From the NCBI GenBank assembly GCA_973895155.1, contig OZ316893.1, positions 21,436,955-21,500,954 on the forward strand: a stretch of DNA of 64,000 bases, read 5' to 3'. The notes under the pieces were generated by a model. It searched no databases. It was not told where the DNA came from and worked only from the letters and a program-made list of their open reading frames with translations. Shown in pieces: positions 4,361-36,314 of the stretch. Both the position numbers and the translations under genes were made by a program. The stretch is from Marsupella aquatica. Its lineage: Eukaryota > Plantae > Marchantiophyta. Every line of letters starts with the position of its first letter. The stretch's first letter is position 1.

Positions 4361-5827
4361 ATAAATTCTAGGGTATTAAAATAACATGGAGTAAATCTGG
4401 TTAACCAGTTATAACCTTCAATTGTTTCATACAATAGTTAGTGTATATAGTGTCAACGAGCACTACGATATTGGCAGGCAAACCTTTTTTCAGGACAAGA
4501 GTTAGTGAATTGTCAACAAGCACTATGGTATTTACTTAGAGATCTTTGTGCAGGGCAAAAATGTAGGCATTGTTCCTTTTTGGAAGAACACTCCATCCAC
4601 ATAGTTTTGCATGAGTGAGTGGGCAACACACCACGACCCCAATGCCAGTTCTGGTGCATCTATGGCCCAGGTTTAACTTTCCTACAGGCCAATGGGAACC
4701 AAAAAAGAAATTAACTTTAAAATGCCACTAAACGTCATCTCAGTGGCATTCCCCGTCACTGTCTCCAATGGTTAGTACGGAATTGGTCTACTATGCTATG
4801 TATTTATTCTTAGGTCTATAGTCATTAGGTAATTGTAGCAAGTCTAACTGTAGTTAGATGCTTGTTTTAAGCAACCTATATGTTCTTCAACAAAAACTTA
4901 AAAGTTTTTCACTAAACCCAACACAAAAATCTTATACTAATTTGCGCAAGATGGGTTGAAAGAAAACAAGTGAGGAACTCCGGTTTCAAATTTTTAGTAA
5001 TGTGTAATGTTGCTTTAAAGTAGAAAGTTTATTCTCTTTCAGAATTTGAGTATGTAAGTAGGGGAATTAGAGGCTGCTTTAGGGATGAAGAACGAGGTCC
5101 ATGGTGAATGAGGGTGTGGAAGAGCAAGGGTGCTAGTGATCAGGATGGGGCCAGCAATAATGGTTTTCCAAAGGAGGGCATTAGGGTTGTCTGGAGGTCT
5201 AGCATTGTAGCATAACGCATCCTAAGCATGCAGCCCAACTATCAAGGCCACACAATGCAACCAATACGTTCCTAGTCATGGGGGCAGCAACCAGGGTTTC
5301 TTAGTAACCCTGGCACAAGCAAAAGTGAGTGTGGCTTGGTGATGGTCATGGGTACTCACAAAAAGTATCTCAATTCTGTAGAGTCTTTGCTAAACCTGGG
5401 TCCTCAATCATTGAATGCCAGAACTAGTATGCAAAGAAATATAAAAATCCTCCAACCATGGCACAGTCGCCACAAAGACTTTGATGTAATGCCTCTCAGC
5501 TTACACGCACTTGGTCACTGAAAAGTTCAGAAAAAAGTAGTTGAATCCCATATTTGTATGAAAAGACACCATAGGTACTGTATGTTCATGCTGAAATTCA
5601 GTTACAATGCCTTTCTTGTGACAGGAGAGTACCATGGCAACAGTTGCTACCATCATACCTGTGTGCGTGCATGACATTGTTCATTTGAGTCCCTTGTGTA
5701 TTCTTCTCATAAGTACCTCACACAACCCCACACCCGACAAAGGTACGCTACAAAGCAGCAATGAGTTTATATTTCATTTACAGGTCACAACACTGTCGCA
5801 TTTACACATTTCCCTGCAGTCTGGAGG

Positions 5828-6114
5828 GTTTTGGCAGTCCATAGGAGAACAATGGCAAACATGACAAGCTTTTTTTGAAGTAACAATTGCATGGAAATGT
5901 AAGGTACCGGCTACCAACACCGGTTTTTGGCAGTCCACAGGAGCAATATGGCAAACATGACAAGCTTTATTTTAAATACCAATTACATGGAAATGCTAGG
6001 TACCTGTTACCAACACCCGTTTTTGTCAGTCCATGGGAGCTAAATGGCAAACATGAGAAGCACTTTTTTAAATAGCAATTACTTGGAAATGAGAGGTACC
6101 GGCTACCAATACCT
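5828..6114. repeat. Tandem repeat, about 96-bp unit x3
   Basis: The unit TTTTG(G/T)CAGTCCA...ATGGCAAACATGA...GGAAATG...GGTACC..TACCAA recurs at about 5829, 5924 and 6021. Confidence 0.85.
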
Positions 6115-6732: not shown

Positions 6733-8704
6733 TTACGAGGGCGATATCCATATGCTGTAAATTCGCTGTCCTATCTTACAATCCACTTTTCTGACCTGTG
6801 ATGACCATAACATTCTTTTCTTACCCCCTGGAGCGTTCAAGCTTGCATTGACTTTGTTCAGTTCGGTGGCCACCCTCTGCAGGGATGGCGAAACCTCTCC
6901 TAAGGCCCATGCAAGTGAAATGTGAGGTCGTGGTTCCTGCCAAAGGATACTCAGTTCAAAACTTCCGAGTTTGGGGTAGACCAACCGCAATTTATGTGAA
7001 AGCAGTAGAAGGGAGACGATCCTGAAGGCTATGGCGTACAATTAAAAGGATGCATGAACTGAACGAGCCTGTAACATAGATGACTCCATGAAGTAGAATA
7101 TCAAGCAAGGAAAAGCAAACTGAATCTAATCTAGAACCGGTGAAAGCTTGAGAATATCCGGACATCGTCTTTATCTGCAAGGAGAGTTCAAAATCTGGCA
7201 TGTTCGTTGCAGGATATACCTTGTAAAAAGCGGGCAGATTATGGAGTCTGAAAACATCGTCAACAAGCGTGACTTGCTTTTGTGTCTGCAAAGCCCAAAA
7301 TACTCTACTTCAAAATCTTGCTGTACCAAATCAAGAAAATACTCAGTAAATCTGTAATGTCAATAAAGTTGCTCACCTCAACAAGGCCTGCTGTGGTGAT
7401 TTCTACGGATAAAAAAGTTCTTGTCTTTTCATCATTCGTGAACACCTCCCAAGAGTCAAAACCTGCCAGATATCTACCAAGCCACGGAATTCATTAGCCC
7501 ACCTGCTACGGCTTATCGTTAATGGTGTCATAGATTTGAAACCTTGGTACAGAAACCAAAACTTTACCTATTGTGAGAAGAGAATTTGCGACGAAGCATG
7601 GAAATGATGCTCTCAATTTGGTGTATGCGAATCGGCACTGTTCGTGAGAGACTGATATGGTACTCTATGCCCGACTTCAATCGCCCTGAGCTCCCAGGGT
7701 GCAATCCCATCCCTCCGTAATTACCGACTGATGGTTCTGCTAAACCTTCCTCCAATAGCCGAAGCCCGGGATAAGCTTGTATGGCCTTGTCAATGAGTTG
7801 CTCAACCTCGCTCCTCGCAAATGAGGGCAATGTAACTGCATCAGAAGCATCCCATAAGTTTGCATCACCTCAAAGGAGCCCAAAGACTCACCCTGACGAC
7901 AATACTGAGAAGGAAGGTTATAGTAACTGTACCTTTCGGTTGTCATCCTATGTAGGAGAGTTCATCCGACTGTCTAGCCAAGTGTCCATGGTTGTGTTTT
8001 AAAATGGTTCCCCGGAACTTACAGTTCCACCTTAGGAAGAATGGAGAAGGAAGAAAGTCTAAAGGAACCTAAAAGTCCACAGGCAAGCAAGCAAGCTAAG
8101 AGCCTAAAGGTAGAAAGCTTAGTTACCAGGAATGTACACGTGAAGTGGATAATTTCCCTCGACATGAGGGAAACTACGGATGCGTCCATCGTGCAACCTC
8201 TCATTCCACTTGTCACTGCCTGGACAGGAAAGTCACACAAAATTGCACACATTCAAACAGGACACAAACAAGATTGGGTAGTGTTGAGGCACATAAGCAT
8301 ATCCACGACTCATTTCGTCTCACATCGTGAGGCTCGTCATCCTTCTAGCTCATCTCAACCTAAAACACAGAGACACGTTAAGATGTATTACTGACCTAAA
8401 CCTACTTTTCCATTACCCACGAGATAAACCACTTGAACTCAAAGCACTCTCTAAATGCAGTTCGGTCAAATGCGCAACCTGGAGGCAACAAATCCTCAGG
8501 AGGAGGAGGCAACAACGTTGAAGAAGTGGTTGCTGGAAAGCGCAGCGAGACAGAGTTTTGTTGAACGGGATTAACATCTAAAGTGGGGCCCCTCTCCAGC
8601 TCTGAAGACTGGATTGTTGTGACACCTTCCAAAATTTCGGATGAGGGCTGAGGAGGATCTCCATCAGAATCCGTGTCCGATCCATAAATCAACAGCGACT
8701 CCAT
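6733..8704 (-). CDS. USB1: U6 snRNA phosphodiesterase USB1 (2H phosphoesterase); exons 8704-8479, 8219-8127, 7835-7568, 7473-7377, 7285-7220, 6936-6733
   Basis: Spliced product contains MESLLIYGSD..., GRIRSFPHVEGNYPLHVYIP, YHISLSRTVPI, WEVFTNDEKTRTFLS and FYKEPRPHISLAWALG, so both HxS catalytic motifs are present. All introns are GT-AG and in frame. Confidence 0.92.
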
Positions 8705-11700
8705 ACCATTTCACCTTGTTGTTTGGTCGCGGTCTAGTCTAGCAGAGCATAGTGACATGCACCTCAATCCGCTTCATTGCTTTCTGTTGCTACATATGCC
8801 TTTGCAAGATCCTCCAAGTCCTGTCCGGAAGCCATTGAGTCGAACCTGCCCCTGAAGGAATTGGAACGCAAATAAATCACCCCCCGAAGGTCTAATTTCT
8901 AGGCCTACCGAACAGGAGACAATACTATAATTGCCACCGATCACAATTGTACAAGGAAGGGGGGAATGGGGAGGCGCACTTGGACAATTCCTGGAACGTC
9001 AATAATGTGAGGGACTGGTCAGTCAAGAAGTCGGGGCTGCAAGTAGGGGTGATAAGGGTCGAAACACCCTGCTTTGAAGCCCAGCATGCACACTTGAGAC
9101 ACAGTTCATTGACGGCAATGTATGTTATAAAAGCGATTTGTCAAGCAGCAGAATGATTGTCAATCATGAGCCACAGTTGAGTGAGCTCTTGGTCCTCTTT
9201 CCTCCTTGCCAGCTCTCGACCTCACTCAAAGTGCAATTTCGACTAAATGTCTCATGGATCTCATGATCGATGCTCACAGCCACATATTTGCCTCTACTCT
9301 CCGTCATTATATAGGTGCACCAGCAAGAGAACGGAACGGAATGCAAAGGAGTGCATGGTTTGGGTCGAAACGCCCGACTTTGAACTGCTTCTCTATTTCA
9401 ATTACTTTAAACATTGAAGTAATAAAAAATTGGGAATGTGAAGGTTTAATTCGGGCAGCGTTCATGGAGTCTGTGGTCGCCAGGACCCAGAGAAACCAAT
9501 CAGCTGAGCTGATCAACCTGGAGAGACCTAGGTCATGTCGTTCGAAGCTCTCTCTCCCTTTCCCACACATCTCTCCCACAGTCACACGCATACGTCCACG
9601 GACAACTTTCCTGGCTAGAATTTCGTGGCGTTTCGGCAAGCAGTGGAAGTGGATGACTGAGTCGATAGCCTTAACTGAGGATTGTGTGAACTAATTCTTG
9701 CAACACTTGAGAAATTACAATTCGCAGATTGGCATTCAGACTGTCATGTATATTCAAGAAGTACCTGGTAAGGACGAAAACAATGTCGGAAGCTAGCCTT
9801 GTGAGTCGAGATCCCTCGTGCTGATCGCAGACTACACTGACGCAAAATAATTTCAATGCTGTCGCAAACGTTCTGTCAATCACTCTGTGGGTCAATCACT
9901 CTGTGGGGCGCAATCACTCTATGAGCCCGGTTTGAACTAAGTTGCCGAGCCCGGTTTGCCGAGACGGGCAAGTTGCCGAGTTGCCCGGCACATAAACTCG
10001 GTATTTGTCGGGTGAAGAAGGTTCTATTTGACGTATATTCGCGATTATTCCCCGTCCCGGCGCCGTCCCTTCCCGAACCATTCCCGGCCAAGACCCTGCC
10101 CGGTCCCCGACCCTGCCGCCCTAACCCTCCCGGACCCGGCCCTGCCCCTGCACCCGGCCCCGACCGGGTGAGTGGTGAGGGGCCGGGTCCCCCTCCTCCC
10201 GAACCCCCTCCTCCTGAACTCCCCCTCCTCCCCGGACAAAGAGAGCTGCAAAGCGGTTCGCAGCAGAATCCCCACTTGCTAGCTCGAATATATAGGGTAA
10301 TGGCAGCTTGGTCTGGGGTTACTATAACCCTGTGACCAAAAAGTGAAAAAATGCTGACAGGAAATTTTCAAGAGCCAGTAAATCCTAAGTTTTTCTGAGC
10401 TTTGTGGTAACAGGTTTGGGAGTTTTTTTGAGCTTTGTGGGAACAGGTTTAAGACAAGCTTGGAAGTTTTTCTGATCTTTGTGTGAGGTTTCACACACTA
10501 ACCCCAGCCCAAGCAATCATTATCGTAAGTAATACCTATTCGGAAAAAGATTACTGGGCAAGATTTTCTGGGCACAAGGTTATGGAAATGGTGGCACCTA
10601 GTAGACAAGGTTACACACCAACAAGAATCACACAGGTCAGGTTCTCAGGGTGACTAACGTTTTAGTGAAGAGACACACTGTATATGCTCCTTTGCGAATG
10701 CGTGACATGTGCCATGAGACTCATTTTGTTTTATTAGGCATTAAGAGGTTGCGACCTGCACGGACTGGAAGCTTTCCGGCCCTTGCCCCTTGGGACCCCG
10801 GGAAAAGCGGCGACAGGACTGCCACAGGAGGGGGTTATGCTACAAACCTCTCATTCAAACATATCCTCCCTGAGGTTCAAGGCAGCATTTCTTAGGACCC
10901 TCCACATGCGAGTTGGGCCTTAACCCGCGTTGTCTTTGGATGCAGATCTGGTTGATCAAATAAATTTGGCTGTGCAGGCATAATGTCACCCTGTAATCTA
11001 GCTATTCTGGACCTTTAAAAGACTACTGTTGATAACCTAAAGTTTCTGTCGAAAGTTACATGTACCTACAAGAAGAATTTCCTTCAGCAGCAGAAGTCTC
11101 TAGGGCTGCTACAACTATGTCAAGGCAACAGACAAGCTACACAAATGAGACAAAGACTAACCAAAATAGCATAGAAATTTTATTGCACAAGATTTTTCTT
11201 CGTATCTATTTACATTCAAGGAACTGGGTCATTGGGCTAGTCCATTTGTTTTTTTAAGTGCAATTGGTTGTGAATCAGCCCCATACTTCGCAACCAGTGG
11301 CCCATTTCATATCTCTTCATGTTTTTGAGTGTGACTAGCTATAAATGAATCCACTTTTGGGTGGGATGTGTATTAAAAAGGATTGATGTCAGAAAAATTC
11401 AAATCTAGGTCTTGGCCTCCCCAATCAAATGCTCTACCATTGCATAACAAGTGATACACATTGAGAACCACCCACAACTAGTATTTAACCTAAAAGTGGG
11501 GTCAGGCACATGCAAGCAAACGCCTCCCGAACCATTCAGGTCGAATGACAATAATGAGGCTGAATGACCCTTCCACTCTTCTTGCCTATGGTCACTTCAT
11601 CCGCTGCCTGCAAAAAAGTGATGATCACATGTTTTTTCTTACTGTAAATCCTTTTGAATGAACCCCACATGAGTGGGTTTGTGACAAAAGTAACCGTGGT

Positions 11701-12227
11701 AACTGACAAGATTCAAACTACACTGTCATGCCGAGGGACAATGCCTCTTATGCACATCGGCATGTCCCTCGCATGCCCGCTAGGTATGTGGTTAGGGCTA
11801 GTGTACTACTTGAGTTAGCGACATGTTCTTATAGCAAATGTCAGGCGTTCTTGAAGCAAACGCGCTTGTTAGTGTGACGCCAGGACTTTGTTTACTTAGG
11901 GCATGTCTTTCTTTGTGGGTTTTTCAGTTCTTCTTGAATCACTGTTGACAGAGCTCAGACAATGCTCTTCGGTTCCGTACACGGGATTCACACAGTGATT
12001 CGTTAGATGCTCCCGGCCGATCTTGGCATCCTGCCGATTTTTGATTCGATTTCAGTACAATTGTTTCTCTTACGCCTTTTATTCAAGAAGAACTGCCGAG
12101 TGAAGGGAAGAAAATCAAAAACGTTGTGCTTCTCAGCTGCTCATGCCGGTCTAGACAATTTCCGTCAAAGCCGGTGCAATTTCTTTGCAGAAAAATCAAG
12201 CGATGGGGTTAGAGTTAGATTTTTCCT

Positions 12228-13510
12228 TGTATACACATCACTTATGTGTATACACTTAAACTCTCGGACTGGCGGAGTACACCCAGGAGAAGACGAGGGG
12301 AGAGCTTCCGGGAGGTTTTGCATGTTGCCCAGGTTTTTCTTTTCCGGCCGCAACCTGCTTCACGACCTACTGCCGTGACCTTCACTGGCGACTTGCTGCC
12401 GACTGCACACGGCGCAGTGCTCTTGCTGGAGTTTTTAACGACCCTTTGAAGCCCCTTTTTTGTTGGTTTTATGGCCATTTCTCGGCCACGGCTGCCATCC
12501 TGCATCGGCTGCCGCGCGACAACCTCCGGACTGCCTCGACCACTGCGCGACTGCTTCTCGACTACATAGGGCCGCGCGCCCGTTTTCATTTTGCCTTTTT
12601 TGCCATTTTTTGCCTTCGTCGCCTTGCCACTCCTTTCGCTTTGGTGTGCAGGCTGTGCATAGGGCATCGTGCCCCTTGCCTCGCCCATTTCCTTCCTTCT
12701 TTTTCCCTACCGTTATCAGCAATTAAAGCAGCTGGATGGGGGGGAAGCGAGCGCAAGGAGAGGGCACAAGGCCCTATGGAGAATAAAGAGGGGGAGGGGG
12801 AGTAATCATTCGACTCCCTCTCTTGGGAGTCCCCCCCTGCAGGGCACAAAGCCCATCCAGCAGCATTAAGGAAGGAGGGGGAAGCGAAAGGAGGGCACCA
12901 AGCCCTAGGTAGCATTAAGTGGGGAGGAGGTGATTTTTGGCAGTAATGGAGGAGCCCTGCCAGAAGCAAAGCGAGGGAGAGGGCATGAGGCCCAACAGGA
13001 ATCATTAAGGAGGGGAGAGGGAGCTCGTAGCCTCTCTTTGGGAGTTCATAAAGGGGGGCACGAAGCCCTATGGAGGGTTCAGGAGCCATTAAGAGGGGCT
13101 CATTTCTTTCTGTTTGCCCTTGCCTTAATTTCGCGTCAGTTTTTCTTTGGCACTTACCCTGCCTCGCCTCACCCTTTCTTTGTCTTTCAGGCTGGATTCT
13201 TTCCTTTCGCCTTGCTGCGCCTCGCCTTGCTCGACAGCATAGGGCTGCACACCATTTTTATTGTTGTGTATAGGTCGCTTGCCTATACACATTCGGCCAG
13301 TCGGCCTTAAACCCAATGTGTATACACTTAGGGGCGGGCCCGTTTTACTCGTATTTCTTTTCCCTCGATGCACCTCCCTTGCTTTCCATTCCGAACGGCT
13401 GCACTTTCCGGGTCCACAATGGGGCCCGATGTGTATAGATTTTAGGGGCCCTCCTTTACGCCCTCCTCATATGCATACCGCTGCGGGTCCTGTGTCTACA
13501 CATCGGACGG
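12228..13510. promoter_or_regulatory. CpG-rich structured region upstream of the gag-pol; putative 5' leader or promoter of the retroelement
   Basis: Hairpins TGTATACACAT/ATGTGTATACA (12228-12254) and TGTGTATAGG/CCTATACACA (13265-13291). About 5 purine-rich units with GGGCA..(A/G)GCCC...CATTAAG lie at 12760-13100. Membership in the element is inferred from position only. Confidence 0.35.
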
Positions 13511-13655
13511 TCAATTTGGCATATAATAGGCAAATGTGAAGGGGGCTGAATTTGCGCTTTTAAGGGTCATTTTTTTTCCGACGGGTTGTCTTTGTAACGG
13601 TTTTTATGTGTGTTCACACATTTTGTACATTTGGCACCCTGGGTTAGCATGCAGC

Positions 13656-16523
13656 ATGTCAGCAGACGAGCCAGGAGGTAGCAGCACATCACCATCGACA
13701 CCCAGGTATCATTTACGGAGTGATCCACGACCGTTGGTGCCAATTTCATTGGAATCTCGGCAATTTCAATGACGTCAGCAGACAGCAATAGCACCCACAC
13801 CACGCCATCCTTCTGCTACATTTGGCGGTCGCTTCATCACTACCCCGAAGCCTACTATCACTTCATTGCCATTTACCCCTTCTACATCAGTGGTTGTTCC
13901 AGCTTCACCAACATACAGCATGGATGCCAGCCACTCATCTGGCCGCATTGAGCGCTTCAGCGGGCGGCCAGGCACTGTTTCTTTGCGTGAGTTCAAATCC
14001 ACTTTCTACACTGTCATATACAAATTGGAGTTGAAGTATGGCAGCCATTTCACAAATGCTTTTGCATTTAAGCAGCTAGCTAGGTATGTGCACCATGAGG
14101 CTTTGGATGTGTATGAGCAGCATTCTCAACGGCTGCTTGCTGTCACACAGTTGCCTAACCCTACCTATGCCAGTGCAATTGCGGCAGCCTCACAATTGGT
14201 CTTACAGAATGCCATTGCAGCCCATGCTGTTGCTCCTACCACTTCCCCTCCTACTCCAGTTCCTACCACTGCGCCAGTTACTCCCACTGTCTTGGCACAG
14301 GCTACATCAGGCATTTCTCCCACCATTGATTCTCCTGCCTTTGCTGATCCAGTGGCTGAGTTTTTCCAGGTTCTTGAATTGGAATTCCCAATCAAGAGTG
14401 CTGACAAAATCATGCAGTTGGCCACCTTTGTGAGGCAGCGCGATGAAACCTTGAAGATGATGTATCGTCGGCTTCTCAAGCTGAAGGAGGACACCCAGAG
14501 CATCACTGACCTGGAGGCTGCTCATCGCTATCTTCGTGCATTGGAGGGCACACCAGCTCTCCATTCGCAAGTATTGCAACAAGTATTCTCAGAGTTTGGA
14601 GACAGCTACACACTGCTCAATGTCTATGACACTACTGAGAAACTTGAGTTGGCCCATGCACATTATGAGGCCAGTATTACGCGTCCACCGCGATCCAGGT
14701 ACTAGGCTGCTGCCCCTACACTGGCCACTCCTTCTCGTGTGCCACAGTATGGTTCCAAAACCAAGCCAACACATGCTACTTTCATGCTGCCATCTTGCAA
14801 CTACTGTGGTAACCTCAATCACAAGGCTAATGAGTGTGATATTGTTGCTGAGGACTTGTCTTGTGATTTTTGCGGGAAAGTGGGTCACTTGGAGGCAGTT
14901 TGTTTTTCCAAATTCCCAGAGCGGAAGCAGCTACGACAACAAGCCCCTCATCCTGCTCCTGCTTCCACTTCCCCACCAGCTAGGAGGGCTCCTACTACAT
15001 CAGTTGCTCCTCCTTCCAATGGCAAAGCACCCAGTGCTAACAAATTGCCCAAGCCGCAACAAAAGCAACCAGCTCAGAAGGAGGCTCACAACGCACAGGC
15101 AACTCAACTCCAGTCTCTGACTCATGAGGTTGAGTCCCTACGTGCCCAACTTGCCAACATCAAAGGCAAGTCAACTGCCTCTGCTGGTCATTCTCAACCG
15201 GCTGGTCACGTGCAACCCATCCCTGGCCCACGCACCACTGACAGTTCAGCACCTCTACCCTGCTCTTTCTATGGCTTGCCATTTGATGCTCATATGGGTG
15301 AGTGTGTGCTGTCCTCTGCTACACAGCCTGGCCTTACAGCAGAATTTTCAGATTCATTATGCCCTTCCTATTTTGCTTACCAGCAGGCCAGTGCTGCCTC
15401 CCGTATTGCTCCCACATGCCGCATTGTACAGGCTGATGGTCTTGCTGCCGGTCCTATGACTAGAGCCAGGGGAGCTCGGGCTGTCATGCCCCAATCTTTT
15501 CAGCCACTCACACTTGCTGAAGAGCGCACCTTGTTGGCGAGGTGGGAGGGAGCTGCAGCTACATCCATTCCACCACCAGGTGTTGTTGACATTTCACAGG
15601 GAGTTGTTTCTCCTGAGCTGCTTGAGCATTTCACCTCCGGTATGGCACGAAGGATTTTTACAACTCCACTTTTTAGTTGCCATGATTTACAGCTGGATGC
15701 TAGAGCTGTCCTCAGAGCGCTAGAGGGTTCACCGCATTCTTCATCAGCCCCTATGACACCGGTTTTGGAGGTCCAATCTCATGTACATACTGGACCTTCT
15801 TCTTCTCCTTTACATGTTTCCACTAGTTTGGCTGCCCCAGTATCGATTGCTGCTGATTGTGTGACCAGAGCTACACTTGATTCTGGTCATGCTGCTCCAT
15901 CTTTCCTGGCTATGTTGTTGAGTGGAAAGACCGTGGACACTAACTCCCTTCACAAGGTACCTCATCATTTGCCGAGAGTGGTGCCTAGTGACAGGACTTC
16001 AGTTTCCACCACCATTGCCATTGTTGACAACAGAAATTCAGTGGTCAAGTTGGAGGGTCACACTCCTCAGGTGGTCATGCTAGACACAGGTGCTCAACCA
16101 GTGATATTGGGCATTCAGTTTGCCAAGAAGATGGGACTGTTGACTGATCATTTACAGCAATCCAAGTGGCACATTCGGACTGCTAGTGGCACTGTGGAGG
16201 ATGTGTTGGGTGAGAGTTCTACTTTACTCACTCTCACTTTTAATGGAGGTACAAATCAGGAATTGCATTTCCCAGTCAGATGTTTGGTTACCAATGCCAC
16301 TACGTATGATGTGCTCATTGGCCAGGAGGCTTTGTTCCCACCAGGTTTTACCATTGACAACTGGCATGAACATGCATACTACAGAGTTGATTGGCATATG
16401 GGTGGCTCACACTTGGGCTACATTCCACTTGATTTGCATGGTGCTCATACACCTATGGCTCACCATTGTGTGTTGAAAACAGTGCACACAGCTACCTATG
16501 TCAACCACCCATTGCAGGATTAG
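13656..16523 (+). pseudogene. Retrotransposon Gag with two CCHC zinc knuckles and aspartic protease
   Basis: CNYCGNLNHKANEC and CDFCGKVGHLEAVC are CX2CX4HX4C motifs (about 14796-14903). The protease shows VMLDTGAQPVILG...YDVLIG (about 16070-16330). In-frame stops at 13770 and 14703. Confidence 0.9.
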
Positions 16524-16726
16524 ATTGAGGAGGATGATGATGAGGTGGCTACTGCACATGCTGCTGCACGTATAGCAGCACTTTCCATCAGCGTGGATAA
16601 TCAACCAGAGGTGGTACAACGGCTCCAAGCAGCCCATGGACCTTTGGTGGCTGCATTGCGCAAATTTGAGGACCTTGGGTAGCACAATGGACAACCAATA
16701 GCCCCAATCTTGAGCGCACCAGTTAC

Positions 16727-17680
16727 ATGGATCCTCCTCCGGATGGCCTTACATTGCTTGAGCTTTTCGGTGGCATTTCTACATGCCTGGAAGCTCTCCT
16801 ACGGTCTGGCATGGTGGTGAAGCAGTACATCTACGTGGACATTGATCCAGGTGCAAGGCAAGTGGCTGAATCTCGTCTGCTGGAATTTTCAGAGCGATTT
16901 CCCCAGCAGTTTCCACACAGTGCATGGAAATCTGCATTTTCTTTCTTCCCTCCGGATATCTAGCTTGTCCAGCACCGGCACTTAACCCTTCTTGGCTCCC
17001 TTGATTTGATCATAGCTGGTTGGGAATGCCAAGGGTTTTCAGCTGCTGGTCATGGTGCTGGACTGCATGATTCTCGTTCTGGCCTTTTTACAGCATTGGT
17101 TCAGATTCTCACGTGGGCTCAATCCCTTTATCCTGCTGTTGGTTATATCATTGAGAATACTCCATCTCAGTTTGACCAGCGTCCACAGGTCAAAGAGGAT
17201 TTCAGTGTGGTCCAGCACTACTTGGGACCACCCCTTCTCATTGATGCAGTGCACTGTGGTTCTTATGCACATCGTCTTCGTAACTTTTGGACTAACCTTG
17301 CACCACCTTCCTTGTTGGAGTTAGCTCTTCACCACACATCCAGGGACACTAACCTCACAGTGGACCAGATTTTGGATCCTGACAGTTCTTGCCAACCAGT
17401 TACACGGCAAGAGCCAGCACCTTGGTATCCAGCCAATACCATTGGACAGCCCCGTGCTGCTTGGCCTACATTTGTATCCTTTCCAGGTGCACATGCCTTT
17501 CAGGGTGATGGTCCTGGCCTGGTTTATTGACATTCTACCGGTACTTGGGATGAACCTAGTCCTGAGGAGAGAGAACGGCCTATGGGCTTCCAATCTGGTA
17601 CTACAGGCCACACCCACATCACCAGGCTGGTCCGGAATGCTTTACTTGGTAGGGTAATGGATCTTAATGCTCTCACTTGG
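16727..17680 (+). pseudogene. DNMT3-like C5 cytosine DNA methyltransferase domain inside pol
   Basis: Motif I LLELFGGI, II YVDID, III DI, IV DLIIAGWECQGFS, V SRSGLF, VI IIENT, VIII AHRLRNFWTNL, IX EERERPMGF and X RNALLGRVMD occur in canonical linear order. Two in-frame stops (16961, 17528). Same frame as the downstream RT. Confidence 0.9.
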
Positions 17681-18039
17681 ATTCTGGTCACTTGCATCCT
17701 TTTTCAGATGTACATTCATCCAACATCTGGAGTTCCAGCTCTACCACTCCATGGTGCTGCTACATGGCATCCAGACCAGGTGCACTTACCTCTATTCAAC
17801 ACTCATCGCTTCAGTCCAAGTGTTGGGGGGGAGGAGGTCCCTTGTAATGTGGCTGATATTATTTTTGAGTTTCATGGTGTGGATCAGACCAGAGCAACAG
17901 ATACAACAGGCCTTGGAGAGGCCTCATCACCTTATCAGCAGCATGCTAGCAGCTTGGGTGGAGAGGCTGGCACTTCTGGCTCTTCAAGCACGAGTACATC
18001 AGGTCCTATTCCTAGTGTTGTCAACTACACATTCATCAT

Positions 18040-19450
18040 GGGCAACCACCTGAGTAAAAGACAGAAGGACCAGCTGCTGAATTTGTTCCTCAAGCATGAG
18101 AATGTGTTTGCTTTCTCTATGAAGGACTTGGGTAAGTGCAAGACTATGCAGTTCTCCATTGAGTTGGCTGATGAAACACCTATCTTCAAGCGGAGACACC
18201 GTTTGAGTAAGCATGAGTGGCAGCTGGTGGATGAGAGGTGCCAAGAGCCCTATGAAGCTGGTCTTATTCAGCCATCTACATCAGATTTTGCAGCAGCTAC
18301 AGTGATGCCAGCAAAGAAGAATTCCAGTGGATTATGGACAGAGAAGCGCATGTGTGGGGACTACAGGCCACTGAACTTGGTCACACCCCAGGACAGGTAC
18401 CCCATGCCACGGCCAGAGGAGCTATTTGACAGCATTGGAGACTCAGACATCTTCACTCTTGTGGATCTAAGGCAAGGCTTTAACCAGATTTTGCTGTTTG
18501 CAAAGGATCGCAAGAAAACAGCTTTCCATGGTAGTAACCAACTATGGGAGTGGTTGATGATGCCATTTGGCTTGGAGAATGCGCCCATATTCTTTCAAAG
18601 AGTCATGGACCAGGTTCTTCAAGGCGCTGAGTTTCTGAAATGTTACATTGATGATGTGTTGGTCCATAGCAAAGGATTTGACCAGCATCTACTTGACCTT
18701 GAGGAGCTATTCATGAGGCTTAAGAAGGTGAACCTAAAGATACACCCCAAGAAGTGTGAATTTGTTGTTAGATCAGTAGTATACCTTGGGCAACGCATTC
18801 TTTCAAATGGAACCATGGCTCACTAGGCCAAGGTGGTATCCATCTTGGAAATGCCCACTCCTACTGATGTTCACACTCTTAGGAGCTTTATTGGGTTGTG
18901 CAATTACTACCGGATCTACATCAAAGATTTCAGTACCATTGCACATCCATTGTACTCTTTGTTGAAAAAGAATGTGACTTGGACATAGAGTACAGATGCG
19001 GAGGCAGCATTTGCCACTTTGAAGGAGAAGCTCTCAGAATACCCGATGCTGAGAAGACCTGATTTCAGCAAGGTCTTTGTGCTCCACACAGATTGGAGTG
19101 CCCTTGGGATTGGTGCCATTCTAGGCCAACATGATGAGGAAGGTAAGGAGTACGTCATTGCCTATGCATCCAGGAGCAACAATCAGGCTGAGAGTCATTC
19201 TTCTTCTTATGAGGGTGAATGCCTTGTTGTTGTGTGGGCTGTCATACATTACAGGCCCTACCTCTATGGGACCAGGTTTACTCTCTACACCGACCACCAG
19301 CCCTTGAAGTGGTTGATGACTAACGACAAGCTTACTGGCAAGCTTGCTCGTTGGGCACTCATCCTCCAGGAGTATGATTTTGAGGTAATTCATAGGCCTG
19401 GTTTGACACATCAGAATGCTGACACTATGTCCCGCAGCCCTTTGATTACC
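18040..19450 (+). pseudogene. Reverse transcriptase and RNase H of the retroelement
   Basis: RT motifs RMCGDYRPLN, YPMP, VDLRQGFNQI, MPFGLENAP, YIDD and KCEF. RNase H motifs HTDWS, VIAYASR, YEGECL, TDHQPL, RWALILQEY and NADTMSR. Confidence 0.95.
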
Positions 19451-19675
19451 TCTGATGATTCCTCAGATGCACGGCAGGATTTTGACCAGGTTTCCATCCT
19501 GCCTACATTTCATGCATCTACCTATCTTGCTTTGCTGCCATGCTACGTTGTTGACCAACCTGTGGTGGACATATGGGAGGACAACGACACTGTGAGATTT
19601 TTGCAGTATGGGAAGTACCCCATACATGTTACTGCAACCTAGAGAGACCAAATTCAGCAAAGGTCCAAGCGCTAC

Positions 19676-21020
19676 TTGTGGAAGGGAGATCATCTCGTGC
19701 GCTGCTTGCCAGACAGGGAAGTGGTGGTTCCACCCATTCATGAGAGGGTTGGCCTTATCCGTAAGGTACATTCTGAGCTTGGTCATTTTGGTGTTAAGAG
19801 GACTTACAGCCTCTTGGTCCCTCATTATCATTGGAGAGGCATGCATGGCCAGGTTCGAGATGTTATTGCCCGGTGTGAACAGTGTGATAGGGTGAGGACT
19901 TCTTTCACATCTCGGCAACCCACACTTCATCCACTCCCTATTCAGGGCATGTTTTATCGCTGGTCATGTGATTTGGCTGGAGAATTACCCCTCACATCTC
20001 GGGGTAATCTCTACATCATGATCATGATAGAGCATTTCTCCAAGTGGATAGAACTTGTGGCATTGCCGGATAAGACCTCCCATAGCACCAGCCAGGCATT
20101 CCTACAACAAGTTCTCGGCCGCTTTGGAGCTTGTGCAGAATGTCTCACTGACCAGGGCTCAGAGTTTAGAGGAGAGTTCCAGGAGCTGCATGATCAGGCC
20201 CTCATTGACCATCGCCGGACATCACGAGATCACCCACAGGCAGATGGCTTGGCAGAGCGCATGGTTCAGACATGCAAGAAGGGCCTCTGGAAGATCTGCC
20301 TCACCAAAAACAAGGAGGATTGGGACCTGGCCTTACCCTACATTGCCATGGGGTATAGGATGTCCAGACATGCATCACTGTCTAACTTTTCTCCCTACTT
20401 CTTGCTGTTTGGTCGTCACCCAGTTCCACCTTTTGCTATTGCTGCTCACATGCTTGAGGTGGTAGACTTGGATTTAGCTGTGACTTGGTCTGATGTGATC
20501 TCTGAGAGGGCTGCCCTATTCAGGAGGGTTATGTCCATGGCCATGGAGAATTTGGCCATTGTACAGCACAGGGACACACTGCGTTATGCACACACACGAG
20601 GGGGCACTTTTCAGCCCAAGGTCAGGAAGTTTGATGTGGAAGATTTTGTGTACTTGCAGCGGCAAGCTAACGACACCCTGGATGGACACCTCTACCAGTC
20701 GTACTATTCTTAGGGTTAAAGCTATTCGACCGTCTAGAGTGCTAGAGTTACAAGGGGCAGATGGGCGCACAATTGCTGACAATGCCAAGAATTGCGCCCC
20801 TTGTCATCTGCCTAACCTGGATCCCACCATTGTGACTTCTACTTGGATTCCACCTGTGGACTACCCTTGCAAAGTGTGTTTGCGAATTGATGATGCTGAC
20901 CAGATGCTGCTGTGTGACAATTGCAATGGAGGGTACCATCTTTTCTGCCTTCGGCCTGAACTTACCCAGGTGCCAGAAGGGTTATGGTTTTTCCCTTCCT
21001 GTGCTCCACGTGCTACCTGA
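19676..21020 (+). pseudogene. Retroviral-type integrase (HHCC, DDE) with C-terminal PHD finger
   Basis: HSELGHFG...CEQC zinc finger and catalytic CDLAG / TDQGSEF / LAER. After the 4-bp frameshift comes CKVC...MLLCDNCNGGYHLFCLRPELTQVPEGLWFFPSC (20868-21002), a C4HC3 PHD with the 7th ligand changed to Phe. Confidence 0.93.
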
Positions 21021-21749
21021 ATTTTCTTCAACCCTCCTTTTGGCTGTGGTCTGGGGGGGATACAGAGGTTTACACCTCCACTATGTACATACCACCTCAG
21101 TTGCTTTTTCTTGGCACTTGTGAATGTGATTGGACTTTTTCTATGCATGTTGGTTGCTAGCAGCTTGCACATATGCCTTGCCGGTGACTTATATGTTTTC
21201 GATACACTATGGCTACGATACTATATGTCACGACAACACACCTGTTCACCCAACTTTGCTGGCATGATTGGACTAGCACTTGATGCACAGCAAGGGGCAC
21301 CCACTTTTTGTACTTATATGAATATCACAGTTGGGCACTGACCTGCAAAGTCATATCAGGTTCTCCATTAATATCCATCAATATTAATTGAGCGCATAAA
21401 AGCAATGAACATAATATCTGCCCACAAAATCCAAGTTTTTTGTAAGTCACAACAGCATGAATGTACACCACTTTTGGGTGGGGTGAATGTCAAAACACTC
21501 TTGGACTACAGGTTTTGATCCTTGCACGTGTCTTGCCCCACTCAAATGTGCTACCACCTAGCTTGGAGCAACTGACTTCCTCATCAAATTGCGTCTAGTA
21601 TGTATCATGAAAATAGGATGTAGCACATTTGGGCAACTGGCAGTACTTACATGCTAATTAATGTGCAAGGCTCTCGATTAGTCTCGAGAGTGCTTTTTGT
21701 CCTTCACCCACCACTAGACATGACAAAACCATAAATAATTCTCTTTTCC

Positions 21750-21905
21750 TGCATTGTGGAGCTAAAGGGTGGGGGAGAGGAGATGAATGTGAAAAAGAGA
21801 CTTGAAATTGTGGAGCTAAAGGGCAGGGACGAAGAGAGAAATGTGAAAAATAGACCTGAAATTGTGGATCTAAAGGGAAAGGGAGAGACAAGAAATGTGA
21901 AAAAG
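21750..21905. repeat. Purine-rich tandem repeat, about 54 bp x3
   Basis: ATTGTGGA(G/T)CTAAAGGG...AATGTGAAAAA occurs three times. Confidence 0.8.
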
Positions 21906-22361
21906 AAAGAAATCTTGGACATTCCTCTATTTGTAAGTCTACTGGCTGGCTAGAGGCTGTTTAATCTGATATTACCAATTGCACTGAATCCTTAATTTCC
22001 TAGGTGAGAGGCTAATTCACATTAATTAGCCTTAGCCTTTTGTTATCAATGCAGGGATGGGGTTGGAATGGAGTGGTGGGCCTAGGGTGAGCCAGGCAAG
22101 GGCAAACGGAGTGCAAGGACACAATTAGGGCATCTCAAAAATGACAATTTGATGGACCTTAACTTTCTAATCGCAACAGGTTAAGGATACAAAATTGGTA
22201 GTCAATGACTCTTTGCTGTAAGGATTGGTCATATGCTATTACCATTATAGTGGCTAGTGAAAGAAAAAACAATTACTTGTGAGTGAATGCCATCATCATT
22301 AATTTCTCAGTAAATGGTCCTGGTAGATGTACATCAAAGTATGACATATAGATTCTCTGCC

Positions 22362-22795
22362 TACCATGATAAACCTTGTTTTGATTTTAAAATCAACGAG
22401 TACACTACATCCTCCACACCATGATAACCCTTGTTTTCTTTTTAAAAGCAATGAGTTTACTCTGTACCATGTTAAACCTTGTTTTGTTGTTAAAACCAAT
22501 GAGTACACTACATCCTCCATACCATGATAAACCTTGTTTTGTTTTTAAAAGCAATGAGTGCACTACATACTCCATACCATGTTAAACCTTGTGTTGTTTT
22601 TAAAACCAATGAGTACACTACATCCTCCAGACCATGATAAACCTTGTTTTGCTTTTAAAATCAATGAGTACACTCCATCCTCCATACCATGACAAACCTT
22701 GTTAATTGTTTTAAAAGTCAATGAGTGTAGGCTCCATACCACGTTAAACCTTGTTTTTAAAACCAATGAGTAAGGTACATACTCCGTACCATGAT
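22362..22795. repeat. Minisatellite, about 50-60 bp x about 8
   Basis: Recurrent CCATG(A/T)TAAACCTTGTTTT...TAAAA.CAATGAGT.CACTACATCCTCCA. Confidence 0.9.
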
Positions 22796-23150
22796 ATAGC
22801 ATGTTCATCATGGAACATGCCTCTTTTTTTGTCTTGTAGTGATATGTAATTCATTTGATTTATTTTATGATAAAAAATAGGTACATGTAAAGTATATGCC
22901 AATAAATTAATATCTGTTAATTAACAGTTTTTACCAGGCTCTACCAGGCTTTTCAGTTCTTCGCTAAGTAGGGTATTAGCTTTCACGGCTTGTTTCTGGG
23001 TTACTTTTGAGTAGGTTTTTGGGTTAGGGACCCCTTGGCGTGTTTTTGTTGGGGCCCTTTCCCCTCTTTTCCTCCCTTCATTGGGTTGCTTTGCCTTTGG
23101 GATCTTGTCTCCCAGTTTGGCATTTTTGCCCTTGGGTACTGTGTTATATA

Positions 23151-24110
23151 CATTCACGAAGATGCTTCCTTGTATTGTCATTAATTGCACCTCCATTATC
23201 CACCACACCCCACCTCAATACTCTCCCCATTTTTGGGTCCCAGTTCCGTTTCAGGCCAGGACCTTTTTGGGTACCCTTGCTGTCCCTGCCCAACCCATGT
23301 CTTGCCCCAGCTCACAGGATTTCACAACAGTCGAGCACTAACTCAATTTGAGTGAAACTTATTCTCTCCCCGCATGAGGAATGTGCAAAGATATTCTGCG
23401 CGCACATTCCACATGACAGCTAGAATATATGCCAGAATGAAACACTGCATGTGCACATGCATTTAGATTCTAAAAATGGCAAGGCAAACTAGTCACTCAA
23501 ATTGTAGGGTGCCATTGGCATGCCTAACATACTGCCATATCTTTCTTGATTTGAAAACAAATTTCATGAATAAAGTTTTGCTTCTTATGCAATAAAATGT
23601 GTGCTTACTGTGAATAGCTTAGGAGATGAATGGTTTTTTATTTGATTAGGTCTCCTCTATTGACAGGGACTAGATGACAGATTTATTAAAAGGTATGCTG
23701 GAAAAGACATAGAAAAGCTTTTCCGTTGGGTGCCACTTTTGCAGGCTTAAAGTATTACATGTGCATTGGTATTAAGTATCCTGTCGTGACAAAAAGAATC
23801 CACCCAAAACATCCAAGTACAGGTTCAAGTCAGAATATTATCCATGCAAAAATCCAAAGAAAATCTGAGGAACAATCAGAGAGCGCACCAGAAAAACCAT
23901 TAAAATTTAAAATAGTAGTAAAGGGGCTATCAAAAGGACTGGGTTTAAGGGCTGCCCAAACATGGGATGGGCAGGGCAGCCAGGGGACCAAAAAAGGTCC
24001 TGGCCTGAAACTGAAATGGGACACAAAAATGGGGAGAGTCTTCGGGTGGGTGTGGGGGATAATCAGGATGCAATGAATGACAATACAAGGAAGCGTCTTC
24101 GCGAATACAG
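23151..24110. mobile_element. Foldback/MITE-like element with about 160-bp imperfect terminal inverted repeats
   Basis: 23151-23311 (ATTCACGAAGATGCTTCCTTGTATTGTCATT...TTTCAGGCCAGGACCTTTTT...) is the reverse complement of 23951-24106 (...AAAAAGGTCCTGGCCTGAAA...AATGACAATACAAGGAAGCGTCTTCGCGAAT). The core is AT-rich and non-coding. Confidence 0.7.
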
Positions 24111-24538
24111 TATATGCAAAGAAAAGTACATTATAACCAAGAAAAACACAAAGGTACTACTAACTAGTTATGCACAATACAGTATATATTTTCTCTTGCT
24201 TCTAGGTAATGACAATCAATTAAAACCTTAAATTTTGTAAAAGAAACCAGGAGGGAAACTTAGTACACCAAATGTGCACATTGTTAGACTCATTTGTCTC
24301 TCTCTCATGAGAAAAAAGATAATTCACTAAAGAATGATTGAAAATGAAAGATTAAATATTTATGAGGGAGCCAAATATATTCACAATACTCTAAATTCAC
24401 TATAAAATTAAAAGGGATCCAAAAGTAACCTTCAAAATCAAAGACACATTAAAATAAAAATACTGAACACAAAATATGAATAAGACAAAATTTGAAAAGG
24501 TGTAATCACCATATAAGAGCTTAATGATTTTCAGGCCA

Positions 24539-24743
24539 TATATGATCACATTTTGATGTGTGAGTGTAGACCTTATATGATCACATTTTGTGATGGGTGA
24601 GTGCAGACCTTATATGATCACATTTTGTGATGGGTGAGTGCAGACCTTATATGATCACATTTTTTGATGGGTGAGTGCAGACCTTATATGATCACATTTT
24701 GAGGTGTGAGTGTAGACCTTATATGATCACATTTTGAGGTGTG
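24539..24743. repeat. Minisatellite, 35-37 bp x6
   Basis: Near-identical contiguous units TATATGATCACATTTT(G/T)..G.G.GTGAGTG(C/T)AGACCT with no unique spacers. Confidence 0.95.
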
Positions 24744-25358
24744 ATTAAGGCTAAATGATGGCGTGCTGAGGTGGCAGGCAGGGTGATGGAGCACGAGTAG
24801 TACGATGATCGATTCGGTCGATCGAAGTAAATGCTTCACCTCCAACGTTCCCCTCCTGGATGAGTATCACCAACGATTCCCATTATTACGGAGACCTTTC
24901 CTCCTCTCCTCTCCTCTCCTCTCCCCTCCTCTCTCCTGCTGCTGCTGTTCCTCTTTTGGCCAATCGCCTGAATGGGGGATCGTTTCGTGATCGATCGATG
25001 TCGACCCACTTTTGCCTCGTCCAAGTTCAGTCCGGCCGGGTTGCGAATTGATCGAGGGAGTGTGAGGATTGACGCCTCTTTCGTTTTGGAGCTTTTCTGG
25101 ACGAGGGGTTGCTCGTTCGATTGATTTCCGAATTGCTTCCTCTCCCTCTCTCTGTCTCTCTCTCTCTCTGTCTCCCTCTCTCTCGACCTCGTGTCGGTAG
25201 GTTTCTTTCATCGGGATTGCACATTTATCGAGGAATTGTGAGGAGTTTTTTGGTCTGTTTTTTGGTCTGTTTTGTGGTCTGTTTTTTGTGTGTGTGGACC
25301 TAAGGATTGGGGTTTAAGTCAGGTTTGGTTGAAGTGAATTGTGGGATACATTCGAGAC

Positions 25359-27668
25359 ATGGCGGGGGAGAATGCGGATGGGAGTGGATGGGGGCGGGAG
25401 GAGGCGACAGGCTCGCCCCTGCCCGACACGCCAGGCGTAGGAGCGTCGCCGCAAGTGCGTCGAGATGAGGTAGCGGACGGGTTACCTGGATACAGTTTGG
25501 CGTCTGTGGCGTTCAGCCGGCCTCTGACGGGGACTATAACGGACGAGGATTTGCAATCGATGACCAAGCAATTCGCCATCAAGGGGTTGTTGTTCACGGT
25601 CGTCGGAGTGGTGGCCATTCTCTTCCCATTCCTCTTCGGGCTGGCTGTCGAGCAATTGCTGGCGTGGCTTCTGGTGCTCGGGGGAGGGATCACTATCGTC
25701 CAATTTCTGGTGGTTTGTGGGGCCCCAGGGACCACCTCGGTCTTGCTGCTCGGCGCCCTCCACTTCGCCGTAGGCTTGTGGCTGCTCCTCCGGCCCATCG
25801 AGGGCCTTCAGGCCCTCACTCTCGTCCTCACCGGATGGTTCCTTGTCCATGTTAGCATCTTTCTCTTTTCCTTTTCCGTTACGCTCTGAAGCACTGTTTT
25901 CATTGTCTTTGTCAAATCTGAAATATCTATGACGTTTGGATGCCAATGTCGGGTTGGAAAGTTGGAATGCAGCCTGAAAAGGCAGTCCAAGGATGAGTCT
26001 TCTTGATGTGTCCATGGTTCGCTGTCTGTTCCGTTTCTCTCTATGCATGGTCTGGATCCTTTGTTCCTCACCTTCAAGATATTTTTCTGCTCTGCTATTT
26101 CCCAAACGGGTCTAGCCGACCCAATTCTGCGGAGCATCAAAAGTATTGATTTTAAGTGCTGTGAGCGAATCCTTTCTCCGATAGTTGTAGTCTATGATCA
26201 TTGTGGGTTTCTTCTTGGATTTGTTTCTTTCAAGAAGTGTTCCATTCCAGTAGATCTGATGAGTGTAAACTATATCTTTTTTGTGATCTCCAAACATATC
26301 TATATCAAAGGAGGAGTATTCATTATAACTTCAAATTTTATAATTTTTTTTAATCGTTGCTTAAACTCAATGCGATGAAGGACTGAATGCAGTGAACGAC
26401 TTGAAGTCCAGCAATTTCCAATGTCTTAGAGACAGAATATACATGAACCAATGCAATAAGTCGGAGAGATAAAAGAAAACGAAGCATCCAATAGAAATCC
26501 TGGGATTAAAACTCAATAGTCCTTTTCGAAGCGATGTATAGGTCTGCTCTCTCTCTTCGGCAAATTTCCTTATGGATCTGGAAACGCAGAGGTGGTCCTC
26601 ATAGGCAAAGTAGTCACTGACATTTAAAATACTTTGTGAAGATTTGTGCGCGGGGCTTCGGTTTACGTGTTACTTCTTCTACAAGTTGCTTTCATTCGAA
26701 CTCCTGGAAATCGAGGTCGCACACCATTGTGACCAGCTTGGACAACAGTCAAGAGAGAAATGAGATAATAAGTCTAAAAAATGGTTCAATGTGGAAGGAA
26801 CGGTTTTGTTAAGTCGTACGAGGGATCCTATCGTGGACCTAGCAAAGGAATTACGATGAAGCTCTGGCTTGATTTTGTAAGGCATCCTAATCTCACTACC
26901 CGTGGACTTCCCATGTGGATCTATCATCATTTGTAGCTGTGAATGGATGTTGGCCATTCCTGCCTCATGTATATTGTAGGCAGAATCTTATTTCCTACGG
27001 TTGACAGAATTGTCTTTGTGGACTGGTAACTTGCGCAGGGTTTTCTGAAACTGTTGCTGGCTTTTCAATTACGTGATGTATCAAGCTGGCCGGCAGTGTT
27101 GGTCAGCGGACTCATTTCGATCGGACTGGGTGTTTTCATCGCATGGCTTACTCCAACCTATGGGCTCCTGCTGCTGGGCATCATCTTTGGTGCCGACCTT
27201 CTGTCGACTGGGATCTCTATGCTTATGATTTCTCTGGTGGCTTGCGTTGGCAGAGGTTCAAATCTGATCGTAATCCCCGTGCCAGTCGTTTACAATCCCA
27301 CGAGCTGATGTGCCCATGCAATTTTGGTTCTGCTTCTAGTTGCTAACCTTTGGCGTAGATTTCTTTCCAGTTTAAACCCTTCTTTTAAAGAATGGCTGCT
27401 AGAATGTTTATGTCCCTACAGAATACCGTTACATTGACGGTTTTGCATTTTGAGAAAGGTTTGGTCAGTCATAAAGTGTATGTGTAGAGACTACTCCGGT
27501 TTATAGCTCTATCCTTGGTAAATATGTGAACTTTTTGGCCATTATTTCAATTTCTCATATCTTATGGAATGCCCAGGTCGTTCCTCTATAATGGATGCCG
27601 AGCACGCCCGGGAGCCTTTACTGCATCCCAACGGTAGCGGACCCCCAGCTGCAGCAGCATCTGCTTGA
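25359..27668 (+). CDS. HdeD/DUF308-like multi-pass membrane protein, paralog B; exons 25359-25850, 27039-27255, 27577-27668
   Basis: Translation includes IKGLLFTVVGVVAILFP...LLAWLLVLGG...CGAPGTT...GWFLVH|GFLKLLLA...WPAVLVSG...FGADLLSTG. Intron positions and phases are the same as in paralog A. The third exon reads RSSIMDAEHAREPLL... Confidence 0.85.
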
Positions 27669-35963: not shown

Positions 35964-36314
35964 GACTGAATCACGCGACCAACCAAACCGCAAGATCCTG
36001 ATGAACGGTTTGCCAATTCTCTCCCTTTTCGGTTCTCTACAGCGAGAAGTACGCTTTGCTGGTCCGAATACTTGCACATGTACAAGACGGATGCGATGGA
36101 GAGTATGTTCGTCCTTCGCAGTGACAACTTCTTCCAGACAGGCCAGTCCAGTGACATAGTTAGTCCCTTTCAATTCCCGTCTGCACGGCTGCCGGATCTG
36201 CCATCAAAACTCAACTCCCCGCACAACCACCACCATGAACAGCTACAATCTTTCGTAGACCTCTCGAATCATTTAAAAACTCTCTCCAGCACATCTCCCT
36301 CTACAGGCTCAATG

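Follow-up and report, generated by a model that had tools for sequence, protein, structure and literature searches.

The 64,000-nucleotide stretch of Marsupella aquatica contig OZ316893.1 analysed here (the window) carries on its forward strand a retrotransposon in which Pfam profiles and six-frame translation place gag, protease, a DNMT-type C5 cytosine methyltransferase, reverse transcriptase (RT), RNase H (RH), integrase (INT) and a PHD finger, in that order. The whole element occupies 11724-21235, starting with TGTCATG and ending with CACGACA (TG...CA termini). The bounds given in an earlier note, written from the letters alone (13656 to 21020), proved too small in the light of depth steps, joints in sister contigs and a target-site duplication. 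The domains it had listed (protease with LDTGA, C5-methyltransferase, RT with YIDD, RNase H, integrase and PHD) were all found by Pfam where it had placed them, with the DNA_methylase (1.7e-6, above the cut-off), RVT_1, rve and PHD profiles matched. The DNMT does share its frame, frame 2, with RT, RH and INT, while gag-protease and PHD lie in frame 3. The best match of the RT in the PDB is the Ty3 RT (7e-63).

The copy is dead and cannot replicate, being interrupted by two frameshifts, near 16.73 kb and 20.68 kb, and by eight in-frame stops (seven TAG, one TGA). These frame breaks most likely reflect decay of this particular copy, because its relatives mostly keep shared frames. Gag, protease and DNMT (with or without RT) form a single reading frame in a Calypogeia protein (P0047) and in P0022. 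Among moss-type loci (80 of 481 metagenome matches, found through DNMT motifs and matched at up to 93% by a Sphagnum protein) the frame is common to protease and DNMT in 48 of 70, to DNMT and RT in 56 of 73, and to INT and PHD in 20 of 37; for gag and protease the figure is 17 of 50, no more than chance would give across a long decayed stretch.

We read the locus, with a probability of about 0.55, as the decayed remains of one member of a Gypsy-type family, found in liverworts and peat mosses, in which split repeats replace long terminal repeats (LTRs) and the DNMT3-like domain of the polyprotein likely methylated cytosines of the element's own new DNA before integration.

Host and relatives of the element

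The host appears to be liverwort-like, because the neighbouring TIM22 gene is closest, among named matches, to that of Calypogeia fissa (85%), followed by Riccia (77%) and Sphagnum (74%); the land-plant setting assumed in the earlier note is thereby upheld. A DNMT search found 19 proteins among 585 candidates, including those of C. fissa, Sphagnum magellanicum and Tetradesmus deserticola, and a full-library search gave 257 representatives at E values up to 1e-30. Compared with the DNMT of the window, that of Calypogeia is 78% identical, those of moss-type proteins 67-71% and those of algae 34-40%. Among the best 150 of the 257, the DNMT stands before RT in 12 and after RT/RH or directly before INT in 90, with 48 unassigned. 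Named members of the first type include Closterium and Klebsormidium nitens, and those of the second are the chlorophytes Tetradesmus and Haematococcus. On the RT tree (all trees are unrooted FastTree trees) the two domain orders fall on the two sides of one branch, 10 versus 94 rows, with a support of 99. Either a move of the DNMT within the polyprotein or two separate gains would account for this pattern.

Long uninterrupted chlorophyte proteins, namely P0012, P0052 (Tetradesmus deserticola) and P0347 (Haematococcus lacustris), run RT-RH-DNMT-INT-PHD, and the Tetradesmus entries, judged by their names, look like transcript-derived complete open reading frames (ORFs). In 97 of 98 pattern-matching family proteins (P0012-P0399), covering both domain orders, 34 residues separate the second Asp and the Glu of the integrase. 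The canonical spacing is 35, and the shorter one is a possible marker of the lineage.

Contigs of four sequencing runs were mapped on positions 8000-27000 (14,041 contigs, 3,240 of them at least 99% alike). In run X1 the summed depth, which should not be taken for copy number, stands near 100,000 from gag to PHD, DNMT included, compared with about 100 in the unique flanks; the DNMT bins hold 85,000-130,000, the RT/INT bins 117,000-147,000 and the single-copy flanks about 70-140. Depth over the DNMT bins resembles that over the RT and INT bins in runs X1, X2 and X4, of which X2, whose flank contigs are identical, possibly represents the source sample and so is not independent; in X5, from another organism, the DNMT bins fall below the RT-INT bins at an 80% cut-off. 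Because depth over the DNMT is like that over RT and INT and far above the flanks, the mapping shows many diverged copies that keep the DNMT. The 5' leader, by comparison, has a summed depth some 50 to 100 times below that of the coding part; it is common to only a small part of the family, and sister contigs diverge from it at about 12101 and 13652.

Calypogeia, Sphagnum, the sister contigs and the moss-type loci together bear out the proposal of a real family whose sisters keep the DNMT. The suggestion that the lineage had been active in an embryophyte holds for past transposition, as recorded by target-site duplications. No intact land-plant copy was seen, the longest stop-free frame in the 80 moss-type loci having 853 amino acids. 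A first metagenome scan with P0047 gave no match, and viral contigs held distant methylases only (25-53% identity over short parts).

The moss and liverwort elements might owe their relationship to horizontal transfer between bryophytes and not to descent from a land-plant ancestor, an explanation whose chances we place a little below even. It would fit the 84% identity of the RT between the window and a moss-type copy (a path of 0.2 compared with about 1.45 to Closterium), as well as the restriction of named land-plant matches to Calypogeia and Sphagnum. Against it, saturation is nearly reached at synonymous sites, and the Closterium elements are possibly deep paralogues; most matches are unlabelled by species, and masked repeats are seldom annotated as proteins.

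Ends and repeat layout

No LTR pair was found in a search within the window. Sister contigs join 12082 to 21060, and 21235 back to 11722-11724, and both A-to-B and B-to-A joints are present in the host's own family. The ends of the family are split direct repeats arranged as A1-ORF-B1-A2-B2, of which the window copy is a reduced A-ORF-B form. The moss-type loci start with the same TGTCATG, and after the PHD the 29 with sufficient room carry B-A-B in 16 cases (12 distinct insertions), B only in 10, B-A in two and neither repeat in one. An exact 4-bp duplication flanks the window copy and eight of the 15 moss-type loci with both ends (seven distinct sites). Integration by a DDE integrase is shown indirectly, because TG...CA ends occur together with target-site duplications. 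A purine run precedes B1 in 23 of 26 moss-type loci, and a two-base spacer separates B1 from A2 in 15 of 16 (GC in six, GT in six, AC in three), with the GC spacer making the junction near-palindromic (CA, two bases, TG).

It is likely that the window copy lost A2 and one B through recombination between B1 and B2. Two moss-type loci, L012 (B-A-B) and L028 (B only), lie at one shared insertion site, and because they carry the full and the B-only form there, they point to loss after insertion. Alternatively, and we consider this unlikely, the integrase itself produced the A-ORF-B form by taking the inner B1-A2 junction for the right end, or the form arose through assembly collapse. The CA end of the inner junction is the same as the outer terminus and 10 of the 29 loci are B-only, and repeats can collapse in short-read contigs. 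Yet both forms at the site of L012 and L028 need post-insertion loss or collapse, and collapse is itself made less likely by B1 and B2 differing by about 6% or more in most loci.

An LTR consisting of B+A, or permuted insertions, were rejected as descriptions of the family, as the 28 loci with room have no A or B repeat in the 600 bp upstream of A1. Other rearrangements were noted among the moss-type loci. A second family copy directly adjoins the first in inverted orientation in L034 and L045, and insertions of about 0.8 kb break the DNMT or the nearby coding region in L044, L018, L058, L061 and L068. Two such stretches in L044 (10482-11210 and 14578-15318) are 74% alike, suggesting a small nested element.

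The methyltransferase and PHD domains

The C5-methyltransferase motifs are linear and not permuted as in DRM enzymes, lying at 16760, 16832, 16949, 17003, 17072, 17147, 17267, 17564 and 17633. The single window sequence finds DNMT3A as its best PDB match (2e-5), and a profile of 63 family sequences ranks DNMT3A (1e-24) ahead of DRM-type enzymes (3e-14), HhaI (4e-9) and DNMT2 (5e-4). An AlphaFold model of the domain has a predicted local distance difference test score of 96.6, and the top Foldseek ranks are all DNMT3A/B/C at a template-modelling score of about 0.7; the ESM Atlas returned solely generic C5-methylase clusters. Judged by profile and structure ranks, the domain appears DNMT3-like, nearer to DNMT3 than to DRM, bacterial or DNMT2 enzymes, in agreement with the earlier assignment to a DNMT3-like and not a permuted DRM type, which had rested on motif order and on DNMT3-family signatures.

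The catalytic Cys, Glu-Asn and Arg-x-Arg are conserved at 90% or more among 63 diverse relatives, and the catalytic Cys is retained in 79 of the 80 decayed moss-type loci. The ratio of non-synonymous to synonymous substitution (dN/dS) between the window and the moss-type loci is 0.13 for the DNMT, compared with 0.12 for protease, 0.15 for gag, 0.07 for RT and 0.06 for INT, and the DNMT domain is thus under purifying selection, with about 0.13 as a rough value. Related dinoflagellate retro-DNMT3s are reported to methylate CG in yeast (PMC5890265).

We propose the following model for the replication of an intact family member. The polyprotein would be packaged and then cut by its own protease; plus-strand synthesis would start at the G-run before B1, and the internal B1-A2 junction would serve as the template for both ends. 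Within the particle the DNMT would mark the cDNA, which would arrive already methylated and so be hidden from host surveillance or have its chromatin pre-set. Such self-methylation of cDNA, which de Mendoza et al. proposed for DIRS elements (PMC5890265), is likely. The integrase would cut the near-palindromic B1-A2 junction (CA, two bases, TG) and insert the DNA, a step for which the foamy-virus integrase, which cleaves palindromic end junctions, offers a precedent (PMC1180852). The PHD of the integrase would read the unmodified H3 tail, steering insertion away from active promoters.

A number of observations weigh against this model and the reading behind it. A minus-strand primer was sought after A and not found, neither as a TGG-type tRNA site (none in 10 of 10 loci nor in the window) nor as a self-priming duplex (15 duplex tests did no better than shuffled sequences). 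Were the intermediate a circle with two equal junctions, A-B-A-ORF-B insertions would be expected as well, yet the 28 loci with room contain none. Contigs overlap the ends of the window copy by 26-30 letters only, where a formal bridge takes 31. Motif IV reads GWECQ in the window, with the catalytic Cys present and the canonical Pro replaced by Glu, as in 126 of 221 family domains (Pro in 59, another residue in five, 31 unmatched), and KnitGypsy-Dnmt3, the related element of Klebsormidium nitens, gave no methylation in yeast, a result its authors call inconclusive (PMC5890265). Synonymous sites are near saturation (a proportion of synonymous differences of about 0.69), making dN/dS rough, and among the moss-type loci themselves dN/dS is 0.37-0.51 in every domain. 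The ratio of observed to expected CpG is 0.27-0.39 in the element versus 0.76-0.88 in three host genes, a depletion that host silencing would explain equally well and that does not discriminate in favour of self-methylation. Finally, summed depth does not count copies, and the 80 moss-type loci, found with DNMT motifs, cannot reveal DNMT-less sisters.

That most family members have Glu where motif IV normally has Pro, and that the Klebsormidium domain showed no activity in yeast (PMC5890265), would also fit a DNMT that is a non-catalytic or weakly catalytic DNA- or RNA-binding part, for example one that holds on to cDNA ends or serves as a decoy for the host methylation machinery. We regard this as quite unlikely, given that the nucleophile Cys, the motif VI Glu and the motif VIII Arg are among the most conserved columns, that the Cys persists in nearly all of the decayed loci, and that Glu-Cys and Pro-Cys states interleave on the family tree, as expected of a tolerated variant.

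The PHD is nearest to the fingers of WSTF, BAZ2A/B, KDM5 PHD1 and ATXR5; its seventh zinc ligand is Phe in the window copy and Cys in 21 of 31 moss-type loci. Fingers of the WSTF, BAZ2 and KDM5 PHD1 class read unmodified H3 (unmethylated H3K4), and by analogy a finger of this class would more readily serve the integrase in choosing targets than control the DNMT in the manner of an ADD domain. A joint action of DNMT and PHD on the chromatin of the host where the element inserts, comparable to that of DNMT3 and its ADD domain, is decidedly improbable. The histone-reading class of the PHD would suit such a role, as would the chlorophyte form, with the DNMT directly before INT-PHD in 90 of the 150 best representatives, and the presence of both domains in most long family proteins. 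Here, however, about 1,050 residues of RT, RH and INT intervene and protease cutting would likely separate the DNMT from INT-PHD, while P0389 and P0394 carry a DNMT with no PHD match. PHD fingers also occur in Chlamydomonas Gypsy elements for which no DNMT is listed in the text of PMC9940879. The coupled, ADD-like writer-plus-reader module of the earlier note is thus weakly supported at best.

A one-off capture, nested insertion, algal contamination or misassembly is very unlikely and can in practice be set aside: no contig formally bridges the element ends, but the 4-bp duplication matches at both, the DNMT occupies one and the same position in proteins of Calypogeia, Sphagnum, Closterium and Klebsormidium, the nearest named relative is a liverwort on contigs of 15-67 Mb, the algal DNMTs are distant, and the flanking TIM22 has liverwort affinity.

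Related systems, coordinates and the rest of the window

The element is very probably of the same kind as KnitGypsy-Dnmt3 (de Mendoza et al. 2018, PMC5890265). Both have an intronless, unpermuted DNMT3-like domain inside a Gypsy Pol, both families are under purifying selection, and the Fig. 4c legend of that article gives KnitGypsy-Dnmt3 DIRS-type repeats, comparable to A1-ORF-B1-A2-B2. K. nitens P0162 has protease followed by DNMT, as in the window, and the same DNMT place in Closterium and Klebsormidium proteins supports the kinship with charophyte elements suggested before. In contrast, the host of the window element is a land plant, its DNMT is 36% identical, and motif IV is Glu-Cys where P0162 has Pro-Cys; P0162, which has no RT, does not belong to the clade of 41 rows that contains the window, its own position being in a part of the tree with poor resolution. 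The text of PMC5890265 makes no mention of a PHD, which the window element has, and gives no termini, 4-bp duplication, G-run or junction for KnitGypsy-Dnmt3. SymbioDIRS-Dnmt3, from the same article, is likewise a retroelement with a C5-methyltransferase, but on a DIRS backbone.

PAT/Ngaro elements (PMC4157794) share the A1-B1-A2-B2 repeat layout and the lack of a detected tRNA primer site. Unlike them, the present element encodes a protease and a DDE integrase with an H2C2 finger, has TG...CA ends and is flanked by a target-site duplication, and its methyltransferase is of C5 type; membership of the DIRS order was rejected on the target-site duplications and the absence of a tyrosine recombinase match in Pfam. 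With plant Ty3/Gypsy elements of REXdb (PMC6317226) it shares gag-PR-RT-RH-INT (PR, protease), TG...CA, the 4-bp duplication and the polypurine tract, and differs in the 34-residue D-E spacing and the DNMT domain. A standard Ty3/Gypsy LTR retrotransposon (Metaviridae) was rejected: the Ty3-like pol and TG...CA ends are present, whereas the family is without paired LTRs or a tRNA primer site. The accessory chromatin reader recalls the PHD-bearing Gypsy-7a_cRei of Chlamydomonas (PMC9940879). EpiLTRs (10.64898/2026.05.21.726589) also combine a C5 methyltransferase with a chromatin reader, although their DNMTs are sister to DNMT4 and accompanied by DAM and a chromodomain. Troyka has a Gypsy-like domain order with unusual ends, and was rejected as it has paired LTRs, CG...CG ends and 3-bp duplications and is animal-only (PMC12440569).

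A Gypsy-DNMT3 element had been described in print from one alga and is here extended to land plants; what appears new are better defined ends, a family wider than that found in print, and a chlorophyte sister group with the DNMT before the integrase. Our literature search, which left subscription journals, Repbase and some supplements outside, found no bryophyte report of such elements; the texts covered include PMC12344493, PMC6453930 and PMC11982613. Two later papers say 'streptophytes' when pointing to the 2018 work (PMC5890265), and a 2019 review says in its text that land plants such as tracheophytes lack methylase-encoding transposons (PMC6338049). For inclusion in REXdb an element needed two LTRs of at least 95% similarity (PMC6317226); the present layout would be missed under that rule, which may explain the gap. 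More broadly, and on balance with doubt, we suggest an unnamed, green-plant-wide lineage of integrase-retrotransposons, from chlorophytes to liverworts and peat mosses, that would lack LTRs and a tRNA primer, open a palindromic end junction by its integrase and pre-methylate its copies by an active Glu-Cys DNMT3, and that would be abundant in land plants yet unseen by LTR-finding pipelines.

The same design has multiplied in liverwort and moss genomes beside the hosts' own methylation systems, raising the questions of why a transposon should encode the very class of enzyme by which it is silenced, and how replication with split repeats proceeds in an element that uses an integrase. Long uninterrupted algal polyproteins, which come with both motif IV variants and in two domain orders, offer natural comparisons, and annotated copies may inflate DNMT3 counts in bryophyte gene sets.

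Table 1. Coordinates of the element and its parts in the window
Feature	Position	Strand	Evidence and remarks
Left target-site duplication, 4 bp	11720..11723		Same bases as 21236-21239
Repeat A (A1), left element end, TGTCATG start	11724..12082	+	Depth step at 11724, joints in sister contigs
5' leader, subfamily-specific, without TGG-type tRNA primer site after A	12083..13650	+	Depth
Gag-to-protease reading frame, frame 3	13773..16520	+	66% identity to Calypogeia P0047 N-terminus; single stop 14703
Cys/His knuckles in gag-protease frame	14796-14903	+	
Aspartic protease	16044..16334	+	PF13975 (gag-asp_proteas) 6e-7; LDTGA at 16080
DNMT3-like C5 cytosine methyltransferase (predicted), frame 2	16727..17710	+	PF00145 (DNA_methylase) 1.7e-6; motif IV GWECQ; stops 16961 and 17528
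Reverse transcriptase	18335..18799	+	PF00078 (RVT_1) 5e-27; YIDD at 18644; stops downstream 18824, 18986
RNase H	19061..19375	+	PF17917 2e-35
Integrase, H2C2 finger and catalytic core	19733..20440	+	PF17921 (H2C2) 3e-13, PF00665 (rve) 1e-11; stop 19640 just upstream
Integrase second Asp and Glu	20150, 20255		34 residues between
PHD finger, frame 3	20868..21002	+	PF00628 1.7e-10; stop 21018
G-run directly before B, predicted polypurine tract	21053..21059	+	
Repeat B, right element end, CACGACA end	21060..21235	+	Joints in sister contigs
Right target-site duplication, 4 bp	21236..21239		Matches left copy

Elsewhere in the window, host genes lie at 798-1505, 6736-7869, 25338-25886, 34549-36203, 47822-48832, 52376-52879 and 56912-59050; they comprise two DUF308 genes, an HVSL-family gene, a Bet v 1-like gene, a BSP peptidase, TIM22 and a PHD-homeodomain protein (one 713-codon frame). 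Inverted-repeat pairs that are 74-87% alike, at 23146-24115, 40587-42584 and 41709-49552, resemble the ends of miniature inverted-repeat transposable elements or DNA transposons. Direct copies of a sequence of some 126 bp, 94-100% alike, stand 3.6 kb apart (29314-29439 and 32900-33026) and possibly mark a small LTR-type element, and tandem arrays are found at 22300-22805 (55 bp units), 24514-24770 (37 bp) and 5826-6113 (96 bp).

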